DNA of 20,000 bases from an uncultured virus (IMG/VR IMGVR_UViG_2061766007_000813) (lineage: Duplodnaviria > Heunggongvirae > Uroviricota > Caudoviricetes). The stretch lies in the IMG/VR virus record IMGVR_UViG_2061766007_000813; one strand, written 5' to 3'. Numbering within the stretch: position 1 is the stretch's first letter; every line of letters begins with the position of its first letter. Positions 2,991-12,872 of this stretch are shown piece after piece. The notes beneath the pieces were generated by a model, which saw only the letters and a list, made by a program, of their open reading frames with translations, had not been told where the DNA came from and ran no database searches. Both the position numbers and the translations under genes were made by a program.

Positions 2991-3410
2991 ATGAAATACG
3001 ACCATCCACAGCAGTTGGAACCGAAATGTATAGAAATCGAAATGCGTTTAAATGATGGATTCTGGCATCCTTGCTACGACTACTTTTTCGAGTCTAAGGA
3101 CTACATCGTATGTCAGTCGTACAGTTCATGGAATAATCCACAGCTTCTCATTCTTGATAAGAACAACCTTATAATGGCGGATGCTTTCATAAGCGACGGA
3201 AACCATGTTGAATACGGGGAACGGCTGTTCCAGCATTCGTATTACAATAATTTTGAAGACGACGGGACGTTGCTTGTATCGAAGGAACTGCTTGATTCCA
3301 TCATTTATAAAATCATGATAGGAGATTTGAAGCTTCTTAGCAAGGACGCGCTTCTTGACAGCATAATGAAAAAAATGTCTGAAATCTTGAAAAAGAGGAT
3401 GAAAGCATAG
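2991..3410 (+). CDS. Hypothetical protein (~139 aa)
   Basis: Open frame following dut in the same orientation. ATG 2991 is the first non-overlapping start. No recognisable motif. Confidence 0.6.
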   Translation: MKYDHPQQLEPKCIEIEMRLNDGFWHPCYDYFFESKDYIVCQSYSSWNNPQLLILDKNNLIMADAFISDGNHVEYGERLFQHSYYNNFEDDGTLLVSKELLDSIIYKIMIGDLKLLSKDALLDSIMKKMSEILKKRMKA

Positions 3411-3436
3411 TTCCATCGTATGATGATTTTTCTGTC

Positions 3437-3468
3437 TGGCTCGCTTGAATTTTCCGTTAGGCGAGCCA
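3437..3468. terminator. GC-rich hairpin after the 2991-3410 gene
   Basis: tggctcgc...gcgagcca inverted repeat; any downstream T-tract is hidden by the N-gap. Confidence 0.35.
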
Positions 3469-3479
3469 TNNNNNNNNNN

Positions 3480-3767
3480 AGACACGAACCGCAGGGAATA
3501 CACGGGCGGGACATTGAAGGACGGTATATGCCTGTCCGACGTATGGACGGACATCCCCGCATTGCCACACAACTCGAAAGAGAAAGTTGACCACCCGACG
3601 CAGAAGCCNNNNNNNNNNNNNNNNNNNNNNNNNNNNNNNNNNNNNNNNNNNNNNNNNNNNNNNNNNNNNNNNNNNNNNNNNNNNNNNNNNNNNNNNNNNN
3701 NNNNNNNNNNNNNNNTAATCTGGCAATAAGCAGGATGCAATCGGAAACACCAATCTGGAAAAAATAA
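3480..3767 (+). repeat. Second, gapped copy of the 3' part of the methyltransferase gene (strain variant or duplication)
   Basis: 3480-3608 matches 1310-1438 with 5 mismatches in 129 nt. 3716-3767 matches the MTase 3' end (...SETPIWKK*). Flanked and interrupted by N-runs. Confidence 0.85.
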
Positions 3768-3781
3768 AAAGGAGTACGATT

Positions 3782-4004
3782 ATGGAAGAAAAACAAAAGG
3801 AATTCGATGAGTTGATTGACGAATTCATTGAACTGTCGTCGGCATCAATCATGATAAAAGGTACGCAACCGAAGCAGAACGGGATGTACGCATACGAGGA
3901 ATTCGCTCTCGGAGACGACACCATCATATTCGGAATCGAGGAATTCGGATACCATGACGGTCAGAAGGCGTTCAGGGTGGTGGCGTTCGCAAACGGCGAA
4001 TTGA
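3782..4004 (+). CDS. Partial ORF homologous to the N-terminal domain of the dUTPase fusion; cut by an N-gap and possibly the true N-terminus of DnaE
   Basis: MEEKQKEFDELIDEFIELSSASI...FGIEEFGYHDGQKAFRVVAF aligns with MEEQQFDGLIEKFLESASSSI...FGIERFGYHDGLEAFRIVAF; same SD context. Confidence 0.75.
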
Positions 4005-4014
4005 NNNNNNNNNN

Positions 4015-6531
4015 GAAGAACAACAGCAACCATCCACGCCTTTCGTGGATTTCGGAAGGAAGACCCAGTTTTCACTCAAGACCGCTATGGGAGAGCCGAA
4101 GACAGCCATTCCCATTCTCAAGAAGCGCAATCAGAAGTGGTTTCCTATTTCAGACTACGGCGAGTGCTCTTCTTGGGTGAAGCAGTATTTCGGTTGCATC
4201 AAAGAAGGCATCGTCCCCATCCTCGGTATGGAGACGTTTGTCAACAACTACCGCTTCACAATCAATGCGGACGATGCGAACGACGTGACCGTGCATAAGT
4301 ACGGGGAGAACGAGGAATGGGAGAGAAAGGACACGGAGGTTTCCGAAGATGAGCTTGACTGGTCGCAGATTGATTTCCCGATTGACATCTTCGCACGTGC
4401 CCCTAAGTCGGAGTACAATGTCATCAAGATTCACAACGACGCGCAGTTGCACGGCGTGGAGAAAAGACCAAGGACGACCGACGCTTTCCTGAAGACGCAT
4501 GGCGAAGGAGTTGTGGCGTTGATGCCGACTCCGTATTCCGAGATTTCGTCGCATATATTCAATGGGAATTACAAGGAGGCATTGGCGAAATACGAATTCT
4601 ACAAATCCGTGTTTGACGATGTGTATGTGGAAATTCCGTTGCTTGAAGACGAGGAATACCGTGAAATCAACTCCGTCACGATTTCGTTCTGCAAGAAGCA
4701 TGGCATCAAGATGGTTCCAGTGCTCAATTCCCACTATGATACCATCGACGATGAAGAGGCATTCCCGATATTCCAGAAGTGCGGTGTATTGCGCGGTGGA
4801 ATGTCATACGAGGTGGACTACGCCCCGAACATGTATATGAAAACAAAGGAAGAGGTGTTGGACACATTCCACAAGTTCCACGAGTCAGATATCTTCACGC
4901 AGGATATCATAGACGAATTGATGAAGAATCTCGACGAGCTGTGCGAATCATTTACAACGCTTGAACTGGATACGTCTCCAAAAACCCCGCATTTCGAGAA
5001 TTCGGATGTCGAACTTAGAGAGCATGCATGGGCTGGATTCAAGAAATACGGGTTCGACAAAAAGCCGAACGCGCAGGTTTACAAGGACAGGCTGGAATAC
5101 GAATTGAAGAACATCATCAGTGCTGGCTTTGCCGATTACTTCATTTTGATTGAACGTATGTTCAATTGGTATAAATATGAAAAAGGTTGGCTTTCGTCCT
5201 GCGGTCGCGGAAGCGCGGCTGGCGCATTAACCCTTAGATGCCTTGGAGTCACGAAAATCGACCCCGTTCATCACAATTTACTGTTCGAGCGTTTCTTGGA
5301 TGCTTCACGTCTTGATGAAATTGTAAACAAAGGCGGAAAAGTGACAGGTGCCGATTTTCCCGACGTGGATAACGATGTGTTAAGTGCTCGTAAAGAACAA
5401 GTTAAGGAATATTTTGCAGAAGTCTATGGGAAGGAAAACATCTGTTCTGTCGGTACGGTTGGATACCTGAAAATCAAATCCACGCTTAAAGAGCTTGGGC
5501 GCGTGTTTGGAATCAACGACAAGGAAATCAATACATTGACGACTGACGGCATGAAGGAGTACGAGCTTGAAGACGACGGACGACCGCTGGAAGAGTTGTG
5601 TGAGAAATTCAAGGAGCTTAAAAAGTTCCTCGACAAGTATCCAGAAGTCGCCAAGGTGTTCAAAAAGCTTCAAGGTACAATCAACTCGTGGGGCGTACAT
5701 GCAGGCGGTATCCTCATCTCCGACAGACCGCTTGTTGACCAGTTGCCAGTGCGTATCAACAAGGGCAAGCTGGTCTCATGCTGGAGCGAGGGTCTTAATG
5801 GTCGTGACCTCGGCGAAATGGGCTTCCTGAAACTAGACCTGCTCGCCATCGAAACACTTGACATTATTGAAGATGCCTTGAAAATCATACAGGACAAATT
5901 CCCAGAAAAGTACAAGTCATTTGACGAAATCATGGAACTCATGATTAACGACGATGACAAGCATGCGTTGGGTCGAATCGAAGGCGGTTGGAACCAAGGC
6001 GTGTTCCAGTTTGAGACACCGCTCGCGCTGAAGACATGCGGTGAAATGCGAGGAATCAGGACATTCGACGATATCGCCTCCCTCTCCACGCTCATGCGTC
6101 CAGCAGCTCTTCAAAACAAGTTCCCAGAAAAGTACGGGAGAAGGCGCGACGGCGAGGAGAGTTTTGACATTCCAGAATGCATGAAACCGTACATTGAAAA
6201 GGAATACGGGATGCCCATCTATCAGGAAGGTGCTTATTTCTTCGGCATGTACATGGCTGGATTTGATAAGGTTTCGTCGTATAAGTTTATGAAATTGTTA
6301 TATAAAGGTAAGATGAAGGGTGACAAGATTCCTGAATGGCACGAAAAATTCATAAAAGGATGTCTTTCAAAAATAAAACATGAAGAATATGACATAGAAT
6401 TTGAAAACGGAGAAGTAAAGCACTATACTGAATTTGACATGCTGAAATGTACGGATGGTCAGGAACATACCGTAAAGGAAATCGTGGAGAAGAATCTGGA
6501 AATTGATGACAGTCCTGAGCAAAAAGAATAA
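4015..6531 (+). CDS. dnaE: DNA polymerase III alpha subunit, N-terminal fragment (degenerate PHP + palm/thumb + part of fingers) with a C-terminal split-intein-like tail; 5' end hidden in the N-gap
   Basis: GRGSAAG, LLFERFL, FPDVDND (catalytic Asp pair), HAGGILI, GFLKLDLL (third Asp), GVFQFE, RPAAL, YGMPIYQE. No FNKSH motif or OB fold. The frame is open back to the gap at 4015 (EEQQQPSTPFVDF). Confidence 0.95.
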   Translation, partial: EEQQQPSTPFVDFGRKTQFSLKTAMGEPKTAIPILKKRNQKWFPISDYGECSSWVKQYFGCIKEGIVPILGMETFVNNYRFTINADDANDVTVHKYGENEEWERKDTEVSEDELDWSQIDFPIDIFARAPKSEYNVIKIHNDAQLHGVEKRPRTTDAFLKTHGEGVVALMPTPYSEISSHIFNGNYKEALAKYEFYKSVFDDVYVEIPLLEDEEYREINSVTISFCKKHGIKMVPVLNSHYDTIDDEEAFPIFQKCGVLRGGMSYEVDYAPNMYMKTKEEVLDTFHKFHESDIFTQDIIDELMKNLDELCESFTTLELDTSPKTPHFENSDVELREHAWAGFKKYGFDKKPNAQVYKDRLEYELKNIISAGFADYFILIERMFNWYKYEKGWLSSCGRGSAAGALTLRCLGVTKIDPVHHNLLFERFLDASRLDEIVNKGGKVTGADFPDVDNDVLSARKEQVKEYFAEVYGKENICSVGTVGYLKIKSTLKELGRVFGINDKEINTLTTDGMKEYELEDDGRPLEELCEKFKELKKFLDKYPEVAKVFKKLQGTINSWGVHAGGILISDRPLVDQLPVRINKGKLVSCWSEGLNGRDLGEMGFLKLDLLAIETLDIIEDALKIIQDKFPEKYKSFDEIMELMINDDDKHALGRIEGGWNQGVFQFETPLALKTCGEMRGIRTFDDIASLSTLMRPAALQNKFPEKYGRRRDGEESFDIPECMKPYIEKEYGMPIYQEGAYFFGMYMAGFDKVSSYKFMKLLYKGKMKGDKIPEWHEKFIKGCLSKIKHEEYDIEFENGEVKHYTEFDMLKCTDGQEHTVKEIVEKNLEIDDSPEQKE
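6361..6528 (+). other. Split-intein N-fragment (Hint)-like tail of DnaE, shortened and lacking the block-B His
   Basis: CLSKIKHEEYDIEFENGEVKHYTEFDMLKCTDGQEHTVKEIVEKNLEI aligns without gaps (from memory) to the distal half of cyanobacterial DnaE-N inteins ([42 protein letters not shown]). Confidence 0.7.
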
Positions 6532-6544
6532 AAAAGTAAGTAAA

Positions 6545-6578
6545 AAATGAGCCACGGAAATATTTCCGTGGCTCATTT
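6545..6578. terminator. Bidirectional rho-independent terminator between the convergent dnaE-N and repeat-protein genes
   Basis: Perfect 34-bp palindrome aaatgagccacggaaatatttccgtggctcattt with A/T-rich flanks. Confidence 0.85.
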
Positions 6579-6694
6579 CAGCTTTGTTTTGAAAAGAGAG
6601 TTTTCAGTTTTTCCGATGCTTTTCTAGCTTTTTACAGTAATTGTAGAATATATTGTATTGCCCTTACAACAACAATTCTTCATTATCAATTTGA

Positions 6695-8293
6695 TTATTT
6701 TTCTAATTTTCTTTCTGCTTCATGTCTTATATTATCATCTTCATCATTTGCTAATTTTTTAAGTGTTTTGATTGGTGTGTTTGGATTACACACAACGCAA
6801 TATCTTATAATATTACTTTTATCATCTGCCATTTTTTCAAGTATTCCAGTGGGTGTCTTCGGATTTCCAGCAATATATTGCTTTATTCCGAAGTATTCAT
6901 CTTTTGCCAATTTTTCAAGCACTGCGACAGGCGTATTTGGATTTCGAGCAATGTACTCTCGTACATTTGGATTTTTATCATCCGCCAATTTTACAAGTGT
7001 TTTGATTGGCGTGCTTGGATTTTCGGCGATTACTTCTCTTACAGCACTATATTCATCATCTGCCAGTTTTTCAAGTGTTGCAACAGGCGTATTTGGATTT
7101 CGAGCAACATTTTTTCTTACGTTAAGCCAATTATTTGCCAATTTTACAAGTATTTCAGCAGGTGTTCTTGGATTTAGAGCAATATTCTCTTGTATTCCAA
7201 ATGAATCATCATCTGCCAATTTTACAAGTGTTTCAACAGGTGTGCTTGGATTTTTAGCAACTTTTCCTTTTACAGAAAAATCATCATTTGCCAATTTTAC
7301 AAGCGTTTCAGCGGGTGTGCTTGGATTTTCAGCAACTTTCTCTCTTACAGCACTATATTTATCATCCGCCAATTTTACAAGCATTTCAACAGGCGTGCTT
7401 GGATTTTCAGCAACATTTCTTCTTATATCGTTATCTTCATCATCAGCTAATTCTTCAAGTATTTCAACAGGTGTATTTTTATTAAAGGAAAGTTCTGTTT
7501 TTCCATACTTCATGAGAAATTCCATATCGTCATCTATCAAATCAAGACCTGGAATACATGAAGACGATTTGTTATTTTTATCCCACCATTCTATTTTATT
7601 GTCCTTTCTGCTGGCGCAGAGAGCCAGTAGTTTTCCATTTTGGAAAGCTATTCTCTTCGGATATTTATTGTAAGTGTTCCAATCTTGCCATGCTTCTTTA
7701 TCAAGTTCATCCCCGTACAATCCCATTTCTTCTTTCTGTTCTTCAGTCAACCGATTCATTTTCTGTTGATTAAAATTAAATTCTCTAATAATGAGACACC
7801 ACGGATTCTTGTCGTATCCCCAGTTGACATCAATAGCTTTCCTGACTGCTATCTGACCTTTTCTTGAATCTTCAACATAGTAAACAGTAACTCCATTTTT
7901 CAATGTTTTTTTATTTGTAAATGCAGGTTCTGTATCTGGATTGAATTTGGCATCCTGGCTTTTGATTCTGACAGTGGATTTGTCATCCCTGTTGATGACA
8001 TCCATCGGACGTTCAAAATTTTGAAAATCAAGATGCTGTTTGTTGATGAGATTCATGGCATCGTTGAATTTACTTAAATCCTCTGGGAGAACAAGCGACT
8101 TTTTCTTAATCCAGAAGAGAGCTGCCTTCTGTTCCTTTGCATTCATTTTTTCAAGGCATTCAAGATTTTCTTCGATATTAAGTTTCGGGATATTCATCTG
8201 TTTCAACTGCTTTTCGAGTTCATTACGACTGAAAGCAAGAAGCATTTTGGCTATCCTTACTAAATCTTTTGCTATTTTGATGTTGTTTCTCAT
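6695..8293 (-). CDS. 532-aa protein: amphipathic N-terminal leader, 'NPWCL' globular domain, and 10 C-terminal LRV/HEAT-like repeats
   Basis: Long AT-rich ORF with SD gaagga. Repeats fit NPxTPxxxLxKLAxDxxxxVRxxVA. Confidence 0.9.
   Translation of the reverse strand: MRNNIKIAKDLVRIAKMLLAFSRNELEKQLKQMNIPKLNIEENLECLEKMNAKEQKAALFWIKKKSLVLPEDLSKFNDAMNLINKQHLDFQNFERPMDVINRDDKSTVRIKSQDAKFNPDTEPAFTNKKTLKNGVTVYYVEDSRKGQIAVRKAIDVNWGYDKNPWCLIIREFNFNQQKMNRLTEEQKEEMGLYGDELDKEAWQDWNTYNKYPKRIAFQNGKLLALCASRKDNKIEWWDKNNKSSSCIPGLDLIDDDMEFLMKYGKTELSFNKNTPVEILEELADDEDNDIRRNVAENPSTPVEMLVKLADDKYSAVREKVAENPSTPAETLVKLANDDFSVKGKVAKNPSTPVETLVKLADDDSFGIQENIALNPRTPAEILVKLANNWLNVRKNVARNPNTPVATLEKLADDEYSAVREVIAENPSTPIKTLVKLADDKNPNVREYIARNPNTPVAVLEKLAKDEYFGIKQYIAGNPKTPTGILEKMADDKSNIIRYCVVCNPNTPIKTLKKLANDEDDNIRHEAERKLEK
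6700..7495 (-). repeat. Coding tandem repeat, 10 units of 25-26 aa (75-78 nt)
   Basis: Recurrent + strand string gccaattttacaag...caggy gtgcttggattt; protein units NKNTP/NPSTP/NPRTP/NPNTP/NPKTP. Confidence 0.9.
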
Positions 8294-8380
8294 AATTTAA
8301 TTCCTTCATTTAATTAAGTCCTTTTATTATACATAATGTATAAAGAAAACATGATGATTCAAAAAATTCATGCTAATCAT

Positions 8381-8420
8381 TTGCATTTTCCACAATGTGA
8401 TGTATATTATTGTAAAAGCA
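8381..8420 (+). promoter_or_regulatory. Putative sigma70-like phage promoter
   Basis: TTGCAT-N16-TATATT followed by A-TT-GTAAAAGCA; the same layout recurs at 12891. Confidence 0.55.
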
Positions 8421-8451
8421 TTAGTGTTTAAATCAGTCAAAGGAGAATCAC

Positions 8452-9102
8452 ATGATAGTCTTATGCGGAGTCGGAATCGATTATTTCCTGTATGCCATAG
8501 GTGCATTTCATTCGTCTTTTCAAAAGGATTTAAGGAGATGCATAGATTGCAGGGTGGCGACTTGTGATGAAAGCAACAGCAAAATTGTCAAATTCGCGCT
8601 CAAGCAGTCCGAGCAGGGATGCTTTTCCCTCATCACGTGTCCAGACGAGGACATAAAGGAGAGAATACTGAAAAGCGGGTTGTCTGAGGATGAAATCAAG
8701 GTGATATATGCCAAGGGGAAGATGTTAAACGTGATATCAGACATTGTTGGCATTTCAGCTATTGACATGAAAAAACAGGGAAAGGAGCTTCTCGACGATG
8801 CGAAGAAACACGGATGGGGTATGGTCGGAATTGACGGCGATGATTACTCCATGCATGATTTGTATCGTGACATAAGAGGCAAGTGCGGTCTGCATTGCTG
8901 TGGATGCGGAAAGGACGTGTCAGACAACACCAACTACTTCATGCTCCACGACGAGCTTTGGAGGAAAATCTGCAAGCAGGGAGAGAGGAACGAAACCGAT
9001 GTGCTGTGCAAGCGGTGCTGTGAACTGATTCTCGGTCGGAAGCTCACGAGGAAGGACTTGAACGACGCGCCTATAAATCTTTATCTGAAAAACTGGAAAT
9101 AA
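8452..9102 (+). CDS. Hypothetical protein with C-terminal Zn-finger-like domain
   Basis: SD aaggag. The C-terminus CCGCGKD...YFMLHDELW...LCKRCCELILGRKL has two CxxC pairs. Confidence 0.8.
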   Translation: MIVLCGVGIDYFLYAIGAFHSSFQKDLRRCIDCRVATCDESNSKIVKFALKQSEQGCFSLITCPDEDIKERILKSGLSEDEIKVIYAKGKMLNVISDIVGISAIDMKKQGKELLDDAKKHGWGMVGIDGDDYSMHDLYRDIRGKCGLHCCGCGKDVSDNTNYFMLHDELWRKICKQGERNETDVLCKRCCELILGRKLTRKDLNDAPINLYLKNWK

Positions 9103-9104
9103 CC

Positions 9105-9752
9105 ATGAAAGCTGATTGGGAAAAATTGCATTCCTTATATTATAAGGAAAAGAAATGCGGTGATTTATGTTGCCATAACACAATGTTCCTTACGGATGAC
9201 ATAATCGACCTCGTTGATTTCTCGAAGGATTATGACACCATTGCGAAAATCATGAAGGACAACAGGCTGTTCTATTCGGAACTGGCTTATTCATCCCCTT
9301 CCTACAGGAAATATTATCACAATGTACTGAATGATTGTAGTTGCAGTGATGAAGAAACGAGCGAAAAACTAAAGCAATTGGAACATAATTTTGAAGAAGA
9401 ATTTCAAAGCGATTCGCTTTATATATTTGAGACGGTAAGTAATTTGGCGAAAATCAAAAAGGATGTGAATAAAAAAGAAATAAAAAGAAAAATGTACACG
9501 GGCTTTGACTTTAAGCTCATGGACGTGACAATCGGTCAGATAATGGATGCGCATATTCTGAAACGGCAATATGAGGATTCCTTCTTTCATGTCAATTTCA
9601 AGTATTCCATCCTATGTGTGATTGGAGTGATTCTGGATGGCTACATAGATTCATTCCACGACCTCGACAGGTTGGACAGAGCCAGATACAAACTGGATGT
9701 GCGTCTGGATGAGGAAACAAATTCATACAAACCATACAGTTTCTTACAATGA
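9105..9752 (+). CDS. Hypothetical protein
   Basis: 215-aa ORF tightly packed between neighbours, with an ATGA overlap into the next gene. Confidence 0.8.
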   Translation: MKADWEKLHSLYYKEKKCGDLCCHNTMFLTDDIIDLVDFSKDYDTIAKIMKDNRLFYSELAYSSPSYRKYYHNVLNDCSCSDEETSEKLKQLEHNFEEEFQSDSLYIFETVSNLAKIKKDVNKKEIKRKMYTGFDFKLMDVTIGQIMDAHILKRQYEDSFFHVNFKYSILCVIGVILDGYIDSFHDLDRLDRARYKLDVRLDEETNSYKPYSFLQ

Positions 9753-10435
9753 ACAGGAAAAAACTGCACAGCTTGCTGGTGAAGAAAAAGAAAGAGAGAG
9801 ACTTCGATTCCTCGTATCGGAACTTGAACTGCGTCAGATTGCCAGACGACCCAAGCAAGATAATCGACTGCACCCCAGAGGGGAACTACGAGAACTTCAA
9901 ACATGTCGTCAACGGCGATTCCCTTGTGTATGCAGAACCAATACAGTCAACCCCTTTTGATGGATACAGGATTGCCAAAGGATTCGAGCCTTCTCCGAAA
10001 AGTAGATTCGTCTATGATGACGACGGGCTTAAAAGGATGATGAAGAGCATGGAGGGAATGGAAATCATCCGATACGACGAATACGGGGAATATGACGATA
10101 AATTGATAGGAAAGGTATGCGACGTATGGCTGTTGCCACAAATCCATGCAGGGAGGACATATCGTGTCCTTTGCATGCTGGCATGGCTGAAATGCGGATT
10201 CATGGAGAATTGCGGTTGGAGGAAAATGTGCTACAGGGTTTTTACGTTCGGGCAAACATGTTGCACATGTGGTGCGAAATCCCCGCACTCCACATGTTCT
10301 CATATGAAAGACGGAGTAAGAATAGCCCATATTGACCAGATTGACGCATGCGGTGGTCTGTATGTGTCACAATATGATAGAAATTCAGTGCTTCCTCGTG
10401 AATATGCAAACATGTGTAGTTTAAGGTATATATAA
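9749..10435 (+). CDS. Paralog family A member 1 (CTPxGxYxNFxH motif; C-terminal CCxCG...CxH; possible degenerate prohead-protease fold)
   Basis: Shares IIDCTPEGNYENFKHVVNGDSLVYAEPIQSTPF, IGKVCD and CCTCG...CSHM with 10437-11090 and 12162-12872. Confidence 0.85.
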   Translation: MNRKKLHSLLVKKKKERDFDSSYRNLNCVRLPDDPSKIIDCTPEGNYENFKHVVNGDSLVYAEPIQSTPFDGYRIAKGFEPSPKSRFVYDDDGLKRMMKSMEGMEIIRYDEYGEYDDKLIGKVCDVWLLPQIHAGRTYRVLCMLAWLKCGFMENCGWRKMCYRVFTFGQTCCTCGAKSPHSTCSHMKDGVRIAHIDQIDACGGLYVSQYDRNSVLPREYANMCSLRYI

Positions 10436-10436
10436 A

Positions 10437-11090
10437 ATGAAAAATATAGAATCATTTCATGAACAATACATAAGGAAGAAGAAACAGCCTTATGAGAAGA
10501 CGGAGAAGTACGATATCTGGAATGCGTTTCCAATCGACAATCCAATTGAAATAGTGGACTGCACTCCTGACGGTAATTACGACAACTTCAAGCATATTGT
10601 CGGAGGAGACCAGTTGCTTTACTGCGAATTCGCCAATTCGACTCCGTTTGAAGAGCATTCCATTTCCAAAGAATGCGAGCAGATGGTATATCTTAATTCA
10701 AAGATAAACTGCGCATTCGGAATGGATGACATCGACCTGATGAAAAATGATGTCATCGGGAAGTCACTTTGGAAGAACCAGTTCCAAGTCGGATATCCGA
10801 ATTGTAAAATAGGGGATGTGGTGGATGCCGACACAATCGACGACACATGGGACGGGATTCCGTACAGGTCTGTCGCCATCCTGTGCTGGACATCATACAA
10901 GGATATGAAAAGATACATGAACGAGAAACTGGGAATGACCTACCTCGGATTCAACTTGTTGGTCTCGAACGAAATATGCTGTGAATGCGGTGAGTCGTTC
11001 AAAAACGGGTATACATGCGACCATATCAAGAAACGCGGGCTTGAGATAGTCAAGTTCGCACAATTGAAAGGATTTGCATATGTCAACTAG
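10437..11090 (+). CDS. Paralog family A member 2
   Basis: IVDCTPDGNYDNFKHIVGGDQLLYCEFANSTPF, IGDVVDAD, CCECG...CDHI. Confidence 0.85.
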   Translation: MKNIESFHEQYIRKKKQPYEKTEKYDIWNAFPIDNPIEIVDCTPDGNYDNFKHIVGGDQLLYCEFANSTPFEEHSISKECEQMVYLNSKINCAFGMDDIDLMKNDVIGKSLWKNQFQVGYPNCKIGDVVDADTIDDTWDGIPYRSVAILCWTSYKDMKRYMNEKLGMTYLGFNLLVSNEICCECGESFKNGYTCDHIKKRGLEIVKFAQLKGFAYVN

Positions 11091-11315
11091 GAGGAAATAT
11101 GAGAAAAGGAGAATGTATATATGTATGCGATGCCTGCGCACGTAAGTGCAGAGTGATGCTGAAGGATTCTAACAATCCGACNNNNNNNNNNTGCACATTT
11201 GAGAGGATTTGCATATGTCGAATAGGAGGAAATATGAAAAAAGGAGAATGTATATATGTATGCGATGCATGCGCACGTAAGTGCAGAGTGATGTTGAAGG
11301 ATGCTGACAATCCGA
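11058..11315 (+). repeat. ~123-nt near-duplicate across an N-gap (11058-11180 vs 11193-11315), probably strain variants
   Basis: Same sequence at offset 135 with scattered substitutions, separated by a 10-N scaffold gap. Confidence 0.85.
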
Positions 11316-11668
11316 TTGCGTGTCTTTATGATTCGTCGTTGAATCCAGAATGGAAAAAGGATGACAAGCCAGAATTCGAGAAGGATGACCAGTGGAGGCA
11401 ACCTTACTACGATGACGACGAGTATATTGAAAAACTGACGGACGAGCAGAAGACTGAAATCATCAAGAACCATTTCGACTGCAAGATGCAGGCTGGATGC
11501 CCGTGCTTCCTTGACAGCGAATACAAGTGCGCCGAATGGAAGGCGTACTGCGAACTGACTGGTTCTGACGGTTCGGATTTCGAGTTTGACGATTGTTGGT
11601 TCAGGAGCAACGAGCATCGTTGCCTGACGGATTATGTATTGTGGAAAATGAAAAAGGGACAAAAATGA
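11234..11668 (+). CDS. Cys-rich hypothetical protein (~144 aa)
   Basis: SD aggagg. The 11099 start in the ORF track is the duplicated copy before the gap. ATGA overlap with the next gene. Confidence 0.75.
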   Translation: MKKGECIYVCDACARKCRVMLKDADNPIACLYDSSLNPEWKKDDKPEFEKDDQWRQPYYDDDEYIEKLTDEQKTEIIKNHFDCKMQAGCPCFLDSEYKCAEWKAYCELTGSDGSDFEFDDCWFRSNEHRCLTDYVLWKMKKGQK

Positions 11669-11910
11669 AAAACGAAAAATTGAAGAGAAGTTTTGAAGTC
11701 TGCAAGCAATGCGAGCATTATTCAAATGAGTTCAAGACATTGTTCTGTGGTGACAAGGTGTTCATGGCATGTGAAATTGATGCATTCGCTCCAAGAAACG
11801 GAGAGATAATCGTGAAAATCGCCAGCAACAAGTCTGAATACCAGAAATATCTCGTTCCGAAGGAATGTCCTTGCTGGACAGACCAGTGTATTGCGAACTG
11901 GAACAAGTAA
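11665..11910 (+). CDS. Small Cys-rich protein, paralog family B member 1
   Basis: CKQCEHY...MAC...EYQKYLVPKECPCWTDQCIANWN. Confidence 0.75.
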   Translation: MKNEKLKRSFEVCKQCEHYSNEFKTLFCGDKVFMACEIDAFAPRNGEIIVKIASNKSEYQKYLVPKECPCWTDQCIANWNK

Positions 11911-11917
11911 AATAAGT

Positions 11918-12235
11918 ATGACGGAACCTGTTTTAAGGAGAATAGGGCTTTGCAGGAAATGCGTGTGGTTCACGGACGGAGAGGCATATGCTTTTCTCCG
12001 CAACATCAATTCAATGCATTCATTTATCTGCATGCTGGATTCAAGCGTTGAGCACAATGGTTTGATATTCCCTAAAATCACAGGTGACGAAGACGAATAC
12101 GCCACCTACGAAGTGCCGAAGGAATGTCCTTACTGGGCAGAGCAGTGCATGGAGAACTGGAATGAAAAAAACAAGACATCAGATGGATGCCAGACCATTC
12201 CACGAAATGCTTCTGGAAAAGAGGGGGATGCTTGA
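11918..12235 (+). CDS. Small Cys-rich protein, paralog family B member 2
   Basis: CRKCVWF...FIC...EYATYEVPKECPYWAEQCMENWN. Confidence 0.75.
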   Translation: MTEPVLRRIGLCRKCVWFTDGEAYAFLRNINSMHSFICMLDSSVEHNGLIFPKITGDEDEYATYEVPKECPYWAEQCMENWNEKNKTSDGCQTIPRNASGKEGDA

Positions 12236-12872
12236 CAAGTCTGAGATAGACGCGAAGAAGCATCCGTACAATAGCTTTGTCTTCCAAGACCCAACTTTAA
12301 TCCTGAACTGCACTCCTGACGGGGGATATGAGAATTTCCAGCATATTGTCGGAGGAGATTGCCTTGTCTATGGGGAAATCATGAATTCCACTCCGATACA
12401 AAGGCATCACACGGTGCTTGACGAACATGTTCCGCTTGTACGGAAGTGCTACAATACAGGAAACGTATTTAGCAAGACTGGGATAAACACGGCGTACCGA
12501 AAAATCATCGGTATACCGATATACATGTGGGATTTCCTCATGTCGAAGCACCGTGAAGTCGGAAAAGTAGTCGATTCGGCGATTTTCCGCGACACATATT
12601 GCGACGAGGTGTATTTTACCTGTTGCATCCTGTGTTGGATTTCACAACATGATGTGGATGTGGTAAAGAACAGGCTTGACCTGCTAACAATATGCCCTAT
12701 CTTCGACATATCAAGAAGGGTATGCTGTTATTGCGGTACGACTTATTATTCTGGAGCAAGCCACGAGTACATAGGTTCCATGTGCAGGCACATGTCCCCG
12801 TTCAACGACGATTCCCTGAATGTCGTGTCGGTCGATTATGTCTGTAATCTCGTCATTTCAAAAAGAATCTGA
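12162..12872 (+). CDS. Paralog family A member 3
   Basis: ILNCTPDGGYENFQHIVGGDCLVYGEIMNSTPI, YNTGNVF, VGKVVDS, CCYCG...CRHM. Start is ATG 12162 (SD ggag) or 12183. Confidence 0.85.
   Translation: MKKTRHQMDARPFHEMLLEKRGMLDKSEIDAKKHPYNSFVFQDPTLILNCTPDGGYENFQHIVGGDCLVYGEIMNSTPIQRHHTVLDEHVPLVRKCYNTGNVFSKTGINTAYRKIIGIPIYMWDFLMSKHREVGKVVDSAIFRDTYCDEVYFTCCILCWISQHDVDVVKNRLDLLTICPIFDISRRVCCYCGTTYYSGASHEYIGSMCRHMSPFNDDSLNVVSVDYVCNLVISKRI

Follow-up and report, generated by a model that had tools for sequence, protein, structure and literature searches.

A candidate non-splicing half-intein clasp between the two halves of a split phage DnaE polymerase

The 20,000-nucleotide stretch analysed here (the window) belongs to an uncultured virus of the Caudoviricetes (IMG/VR record IMGVR_UViG_2061766007_000813) and carries a gene for the N-terminal half of the replicative polymerase DnaE, which closes with an acidic tail foreign to the polymerase (Table 1). 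PHP, Pol III NTPase and finger are the only Pfam domains of the 4045–6531 product, with no HhH or OB domain among them, and translation probably begins a few codons before 4045, at the run of N at 4005–4014. The open reading frame (ORF) stops with TAA at 6529–6531, 20 residues ahead of the GYGF motif, and is followed directly by a hairpin that separates it from a convergent LRV-repeat gene (6695–8293, minus strand). Eight terminator-like sites were counted in 3800–8600 against 4.1 expected, and this hairpin is the longest. tblastn with the C-terminal parts of nine relatives as queries found no DnaE C-half in the window. A previous sequence-only reading of the locus had described the early stop, the missing C-terminal part, the adjoining hairpin and the lack of a C-half in the window, all of which we confirmed; it had placed the break 25–30 residues before a GY.FNKSH motif. 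It had further proposed that the last 56 amino acids (aa), beginning with CLS, were half of an intein, either an ultra-short split intein or a domesticated, non-splicing remnant of a Hint domain.

Table 1. The DnaE N-half gene of the window and features at its 3′ end
Feature	Position	Strand	Description
DnaE N-half gene (P0001)	4045..6531	+	828 aa from GTG; PHP aa 6–197, NTPase aa 323–601, finger aa 604–774 (Pfam)
Last polymerase residues C773–K778	6361..6378	+	'CLS' Cys belongs to the host protein and is not intein Cys1
Acidic tail H779–E828	6379..6528	+	Net charge −12; Hint-aligned core aa 780–822
Degenerate block B, T795-E-F-D798 (vs TxxH)	6427..6438	+	Register comparison, 33 tails
C802	6448..6450	+	Invariant in 33/33 tails; corresponds to the LC.DG-motif Cys in the parent inteins
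Terminator-like hairpin	6545..6578	+	15 pairs, 7 G-C, loop 4; consensus match only

A search with residues 560–828 returned 53 proteins among 2,432 candidates of 455–1,449 aa. Thirty-two of them are close N-halves, which together with the window protein and the last N piece of the complete virus genome G001 (329 kb) make up a set of 34; the other 21 comprise eight unbroken relatives, one with a cis mini-intein, three ending in a full N-terminal intein fragment (IntN) at a site denoted GYGF.K and nine distant DnaEs. No relative turned up when viral_contigs was scanned with a single protein, and tblastn against isolated phage records gave matches of 25–28 % only among the 25 matches listed. A tail of 43–50 residues, always at the same place, ends 33 of the 34 N-halves. 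The stop at 6529–6531 is genuine, and not the assembly error that had been considered, because these 33 proteins end alike, five loci (L001, L003, L004, L005 and L010) stop at the same place and a contig of run X1 covers 5724–6574 with zero differences, although X1 is possibly the source of the window and hence not independent.

The missing part of the enzyme was found in G001, whose sole DnaE N part (83650–89228, plus strand) and sole C gene (240197–241732, minus strand, a few genes from a clamp-loader-like gene) lie 150 kb apart. The N part ends in a tail 76 % identical to that of the window. The C-half opens with 12 residues that are not polymerase (the head), continues with the 20 residues that the N-half is without and then reaches GYGF. 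All 12 relatives unbroken at this site have GC or GA, then 25 residues up to GYGF, a stretch that aligns with Taq and Escherichia coli DnaE directly before their YGFNKSH motif. The split form has five of the 25 residues on the N-half and 20 on the C-half (a boundary good to a residue or two), so that no host-protein (extein) residue is lost or doubled by the split; a loss of about 27 extein residues was ruled out, these residues sitting on the C gene. The GC or GA of the unbroken relatives also settles the identity of the CLS cysteine, which the sequence-only reading had rightly suspected might be extein. CLS as intein block A was thus ruled out: C773 is extein, and while the intein homology of the 56-residue end stands, its start does not, the remnant beginning at about H779 (6379; intein position ~50) rather than at the Cys at 6361.

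Several comparisons identify the tail as the distal lobe of the N fragment of a split intein. The profile of the 33 tails matched 27 cis inteins of the family's GYGF/C site with a probability of 97.1 (hhalign, E value 6.1e-11; this set is without P0115, one further cis intein missed at extraction) over 43 ungapped columns corresponding to intein positions ~50–92. Four inteins of the GYGF.K site gave a probability of 96.6, and five of the FPDVD site 1.1, so that an FPDVD-site intein, at 1 %, was ruled out as the tail's origin. Twenty-nine of 40 intein sequences scored above 12 bits with the tail profile, the top of 840 decoys reaching 8.8, and the best matches were split forms (P0119, P0035). 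An AlphaFold model of the tail built from tail relatives only had a predicted local distance difference test score (pLDDT) of 79. Compared with known structures by VIA, it returned Hint domains in 22 of 29 rows, the top 12 being all inteins, with residues 47–99 of the Npu DnaE IntN as the best match (Z 5.5, within the range possible for a common arrangement; root-mean-square deviation 4.7, 53 aligned); in Foldseek, DnaE inteins filled the top seven rows (best E value 0.035, TM 0.60) and no row reached E ≤0.001. The ungapped likeness to the distal intein N region noticed from the sequence was therefore recovered by profile, decoy and fold comparisons. The cyanobacterial DnaE intein named as its model is not its nearest relative: the inteins of the neighbouring GYGF site in the same phage DnaE family appear to be the tail's closest source.

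The residues that an intein needs for splicing are missing from both halves. All 27 cis inteins of the family possess Cys1, [TS]xxH and the terminal Asn, but no tail carries His at the block-B register (Asp in 28, Gln in three and Glu in two of the 33), bearing out the observation that TxxH reads TEFD in the window; [TS]xxH occurs elsewhere in the tail in 4/33. Neither Cys1 or Ser1 with block A at the N-extein junction nor, judged on the C-halves of relatives, blocks F and G with a terminal (H)N before a Cys, Ser or Thr at +1 were found. What the pieces do show is homology to one lobe of the Hint fold and opposite charges (tails −3 to −12; 43/46 heads, as counted below, +1 to +5), and we do not class tail and head as a split intein, three of its defining features being absent. 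The architecture of a family C polymerase is spread over both halves, with PHP, NTPase and finger on the N-half and HHH_6 (Pfam) on the C-half of G001; a model of an intein-free allele adds a C-terminal beta domain, whose identity as an OB domain was not confirmed by Pfam.

A search for further C-halves yielded 60 among 1,773 candidates of 281–895 aa, or 61 with G001. In 46 of them at least 32 residues precede GYGF, 27 of these having a cis intein and 19 none; another 12 open with a full C-terminal intein fragment (IntC), two have a short start and one is a fragment. A 12-residue head starting MK[ILV] is present in 44 of the 46 (44/61 overall), and in most C genes the ATG is fixed 32 codons ahead of GYGF. 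A DnaE-C gene with an N-terminal Hint-like fragment, of the kind that the sequence-only reading had suggested looking for, thus exists in G001 and relatives, and not in the window. The head profile selects the first IntC strand in 12/12 full IntC pieces. Heads are basic in 43/46 and tails acidic in 33/33; position 12 of the head is Gly in 44/46 and never Asn (0/46), and the C-half has Thr at residue 13 in 37/46, Ser in 5/46 and Glu in 4/46. In the monomer model of the C-half, the head is mostly below pLDDT 50 over aa 1–11 and so unstructured, which would fit a strand awaiting its partner and a loose end alike.

Both pieces, tail and head, are maintained. The tail has no insertion or deletion in 43 columns across 33 rows, and its mean identity of 53.5 % falls below that of the finger domain, 60.9 %, and above that of a linker, 41.7 %; H779 is found in 30/33 tails. 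Codon comparisons were limited to the six pairs among the four standard-code sequences (window, L001, L003 and L005), leaving out L004 and the recoded L010. Synonymous sites were saturated (pS 0.76–1.24), with a non-synonymous pN of 0.09–0.14 for the tail against 0.03–0.20 for a polymerase stretch, which shows purifying selection on the tail. Conservation of the head is 50.7 %, compared with 81.5 % for the extein that follows it.

Taken together, tail and head match the pair of fragments from which split inteins build their electrostatic capture lobe, with no splicing residue among them. We propose that they are a domesticated, non-splicing half-Hint clasp joining two DnaE halves non-covalently, a reading to which we assign a probability of about 80 %. 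DnaE would be made as two polypeptides, with the break inside the finger region, after the helix that ends in GC..KIK and ahead of the [ST]GE turn; the N-half would end in the acidic distal lobe of an intein N fragment, its catalytic lobe gone, and the C-half, encoded elsewhere, would begin with the basic 12-residue first strand of an intein C fragment. The tail model suggests that the tail is without the strand that the head would supply, so the head strand could complete the sheet of the tail and hold the halves together as a heterodimer, with no splicing at the break. In the Hint fold the two cut ends are cross-strand neighbours, an arrangement that would suit a single loop of the polymerase. 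The non-splicing, zipping remnant considered in the sequence-only reading is thereby well supported, because the C-half has an IntC-like head, the extein arithmetic is exact and the tail is under purifying selection. Split inteins are described as assembling by electrostatic capture between the anionic distal IntN lobe and the cationic start of IntC, after which the other lobe collapses (PMC11923092, PMC11063168), and Npu IntN 51–102 and IntC 1–13 have served as caging pieces that mimic the binding intermediate (PMC9138240).

Several observations weigh against the proposed clasp. The pairing of the window N-half with a headed C-half rests on G001. The 255-kb record G003 (locus L088), which bears end repeats and is rated 78 % complete, contains a C gene but nothing matching the N-half; its C-gene extein is identical to that of G001, without the mini-intein. 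Statistics on so short a head are not strong: on cis inteins its profile ranked the first IntC strand first in 8/27 and among the top three in 17/27 (best of four offsets among about 130 windows), and P0095, P0099, P0104 and P0106 have atypical or short starts. One N-half, P0029, is without the tail. The VIA and Foldseek scores given above are each modest when taken singly, and the tail alone had no Hint match by Pfam or by phmmer against the PDB, the 56- and 93-residue ends returning only weak unrelated Pfam families (DUF7141, Myosin_N); the tail is too short and divergent for these tools, and we do not regard the misses as evidence against homology. Finally, Npu IntC 1–13 alone was insufficient as a cage (PMC11063168), and by analogy a 12-residue head may bind weakly without help; polymerase surfaces may therefore supply part of the affinity.

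The likeliest of the alternatives, though we consider it improbable, gives those surfaces a stronger role: the halves would associate by polymerase contacts of their own, and tail and head would be intein leftovers that do not need each other and are kept for another role, such as capping exposed helices, stability, translation start, contact with a further replisome protein or, through C802, a redox or metal function. An unstructured head less conserved than the extein behind it, an invariant C802, a frequent H779 and the tailless P0029 would all be in keeping with leftovers of this kind, but the pieces retained form an exact complementary pair from one Hint lobe, opposite in charge and near-fixed in length, and the strand seemingly absent from the tail is the one the head would bring.

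That the pieces still trans-splice as an ultra-short atypical split intein, through C773 or C802 and the Thr or Ser at position 13 of the C-half, we hold to be very improbable. C802 is invariant and residue 13 is mostly Thr or Ser, as a +1 nucleophile would be; yet Ser or Thr is also found there in 8/12 unbroken relatives, and four C-halves have Glu. C773 is extein, the 33 tails are without block-B His, the 46 heads are without Asn before the junction, and blocks A, F and G are lacking, so that of the two possibilities raised from the sequence the splicing one is not supported. A two-lobed Hint fold cannot be made from ~56 residues. A separate gene supplying the missing lobe was ruled out for G001, where a search with a full IntN piece gave three scored candidates, none of them such a gene. 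Least credible, in our view, is a joining of the halves as RNA, or an N gene that has become a truncated or decaying copy: genes of these phages are often interrupted and G003 yields no N match, but the tail codons are under purifying selection, the C-gene ATG is mostly fixed 32 codons before GYGF, a hairpin stands right behind the stop and the complete G001 encodes no other DnaE.

The proposed clasp can be regarded as a variant of genes in pieces with interaction tails. It shares with the cyanobacterial DnaE inteins (Ssp, Npu) two unlinked DnaE genes, an acidic distal IntN lobe and a basic first IntC strand; unlike them, it lies at another break site, consists of the capture lobe only and has no Cys1, block-B His or terminal Asn, so that no splicing is expected. 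The fractured genes described by Dassa et al. (2009, PMC2677866) likewise include phage-like DnaE broken at split inteins, and elements of that kind occur in the relatives studied here at other sites of the same gene (the G001 N part and the GYGF site). In that account, the inteins keep all motifs and five catalytic residues and the halves adjoin, whereas here the motifs have gone and 150 kb separates the halves in G001. No pair of neighbouring halves around an endonuclease gene was seen, with no C-half in the sequenced DNA of the window, L001, L003, L004, L005 or L010; of the loci inspected, L001 alone has an endonuclease-like DUF7487/MTES_1575-like ORF behind its N gene.

Closer in organization is NrdA-a/NrdA-b of phage Aeh1, an essential phage enzyme whose two pieces come together unspliced through terminal tails of mobile-element origin (PMC3045599). 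As in that case, the enzyme is split, no host sequence is lost and both pieces bear extra terminal tails. Crona et al. (2011) speculated that the Aeh1 tails could be remnants of a degenerate intein (PMC3045599); in the accessible part of that paper their intein homology is not shown, whereas here it was found by profile and fold for one Hint lobe. Conversely, the function of the Aeh1 tails is shown in that work, while the function proposed here for tail and head is inferred only. Caged split inteins (NpuN 51–102, NpuC 1–13; PMC9138240, PMC11063168) use the same two fragments, which bind their partner without splicing, but these are man-made to block a full intein, and the clasp is natural, conserved and the sole intein part at its site. 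Split phage polymerases of other kinds are mentioned in PMC12880540 and PMC7824862, with no half intein in the accessible parts of these papers. Our literature search, whose coverage largely left out subscription journals and excluded supplements, yielded no account of a naturally occurring half intein that does not splice.

The likeness of the clasp to the GYGF-site inteins suggests descent from an older member of that family, and the module may have come from a split intein at this neighbouring site. On one route, a split boundary (distal IntN, stop, start and first IntC strand) would have been inserted into an intact gene, the halves later separating; on another, an old intein at the [ST]GE site would have lost both outer parts. 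The GYGF site itself, 20–24 residues downstream of the break, is empty or holds a cis mini-intein or a real split intein. Among shorter proteins, four of nine matches are middle pieces of 129–140 residues (head, extein and full IntN) and the other five are shorter, probably cut off. Together with the 12 C-halves that start with a full IntC, P0107 and P0114 among them, the middle pieces imply a three-piece DnaE; P0123 and P0114 (9,638 bases) and P0128 and P0107 (10,753 bases) come from contigs of equal size, presumably the same contig in each case. Some relatives thus appear to combine the clasp with a real split intein 24 residues downstream. The distal IntN is identical at 44–47 of 47 positions among five of six middle pieces, and the heads differ (5–12/12 identical); with IntN near-identical while heads differ, the three-piece state looks like a later invasion of the clasped gene, and a recent spread of the GYGF-site split intein is suggested. 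The middle pieces P0119, P0121–P0123, P0126 and P0128 carry the head, 24 extein residues and a full IntN, all ending alike. In a 129-residue middle piece the head might, speculatively, cage its own IntN until the N-half tail captures the head, thereby ordering assembly.

Other relatives show further variants. In G001 (L001:8220–13822), the N part is in three ORFs with intein-like ends and with endonuclease-like ORFs of 326 and 346 aa between, so that DnaE comes from four ORFs in all, counting the C gene with its cis mini-intein. P0035, P0041, P0042, P0044 and P0066 reveal a second intein site, GYGF.K, two residues downstream, whose states are empty, a cis mini-intein or a 92-residue IntN ending at a stop. 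P0033 is tailed, yet a FastTree tree of one 280-residue segment, with four distant DnaEs as its root, places it with P0041 and P0042 (full IntN) among relatives that are otherwise unbroken (support 0.99) and away from the other 32 tailed N-halves, which may reflect a second origin or a transfer of the clasp. The longest contigs of P0036 (unsplit DnaE) and P0066 (headed C-half) are both 45,758 (Logan), by chance or as one genome with both.

In L010 (9990–12880 and 2660–4180), DnaE-N contains 19 in-frame TAG codons. Their columns fit Glu best (mean BLOSUM 1.57, with Asp 0.74, Lys 0.54 and Gln 0.52), like GAA columns and unlike CAA columns, and in P0030–P0032 respectively 4, 7 and 4 of the conserved-Glu columns are occupied by Gln. 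A glutamyl/glutaminyl-tRNA synthetase-family gene is located ~6 kb upstream of DnaE-N, and no tRNA was found in the L010 locus. TAG may be read here as Glu and not Gln, judging from this one gene.

Neighbouring genes in the window include metK, a methylase, a dUTPase and a dCMP deaminase. They are partly common to the 329-kb G001, and the window is therefore most likely from a large phage. The sequencing runs that best cover this DNA are from bovine gut and may be where it came from; no RNA data set was listed as containing the stretch. The gene convergent on DnaE-N (6695–8293, minus strand) encodes a 532-aa LRV/HEAT-repeat protein that is not at this place in L001 or L003. Fragments at 3305–4014 like the methylase and dUTPase genes of 885–2971 recur between runs of N and are probably scaffolding artefacts, while 9749–12872 holds several paralogous ORFs of 217–262 aa with no Pfam family and a common DCT..G.Y.NF.H-like motif.

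On balance, we lean slightly towards a history in which a selfish split intein was pared to its ~55-residue capture lobe and fixed as an essential two-peptide clasp of the polymerase across a whole clade of large gut phages, some members combining the clasp with trans-splicing 24 residues away. Members with three or more products require a clasp orthogonal to the working intein. The 33 tail and 44 head sequences, with one cognate pair, offer a natural test of the capture-and-collapse model, and the 2011 speculation on the Aeh1 tails becomes directly testable; a heterodimer of 45 + 12 residues whose ends fit a loop of the host protein would be a useful split-protein tag. The clasp would also explain why annotation shows such phage polymerases as truncated. 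If true, it would show that the life cycle of an intein can end otherwise than in loss, with the host enzyme retaining the binding half once splicing has gone.

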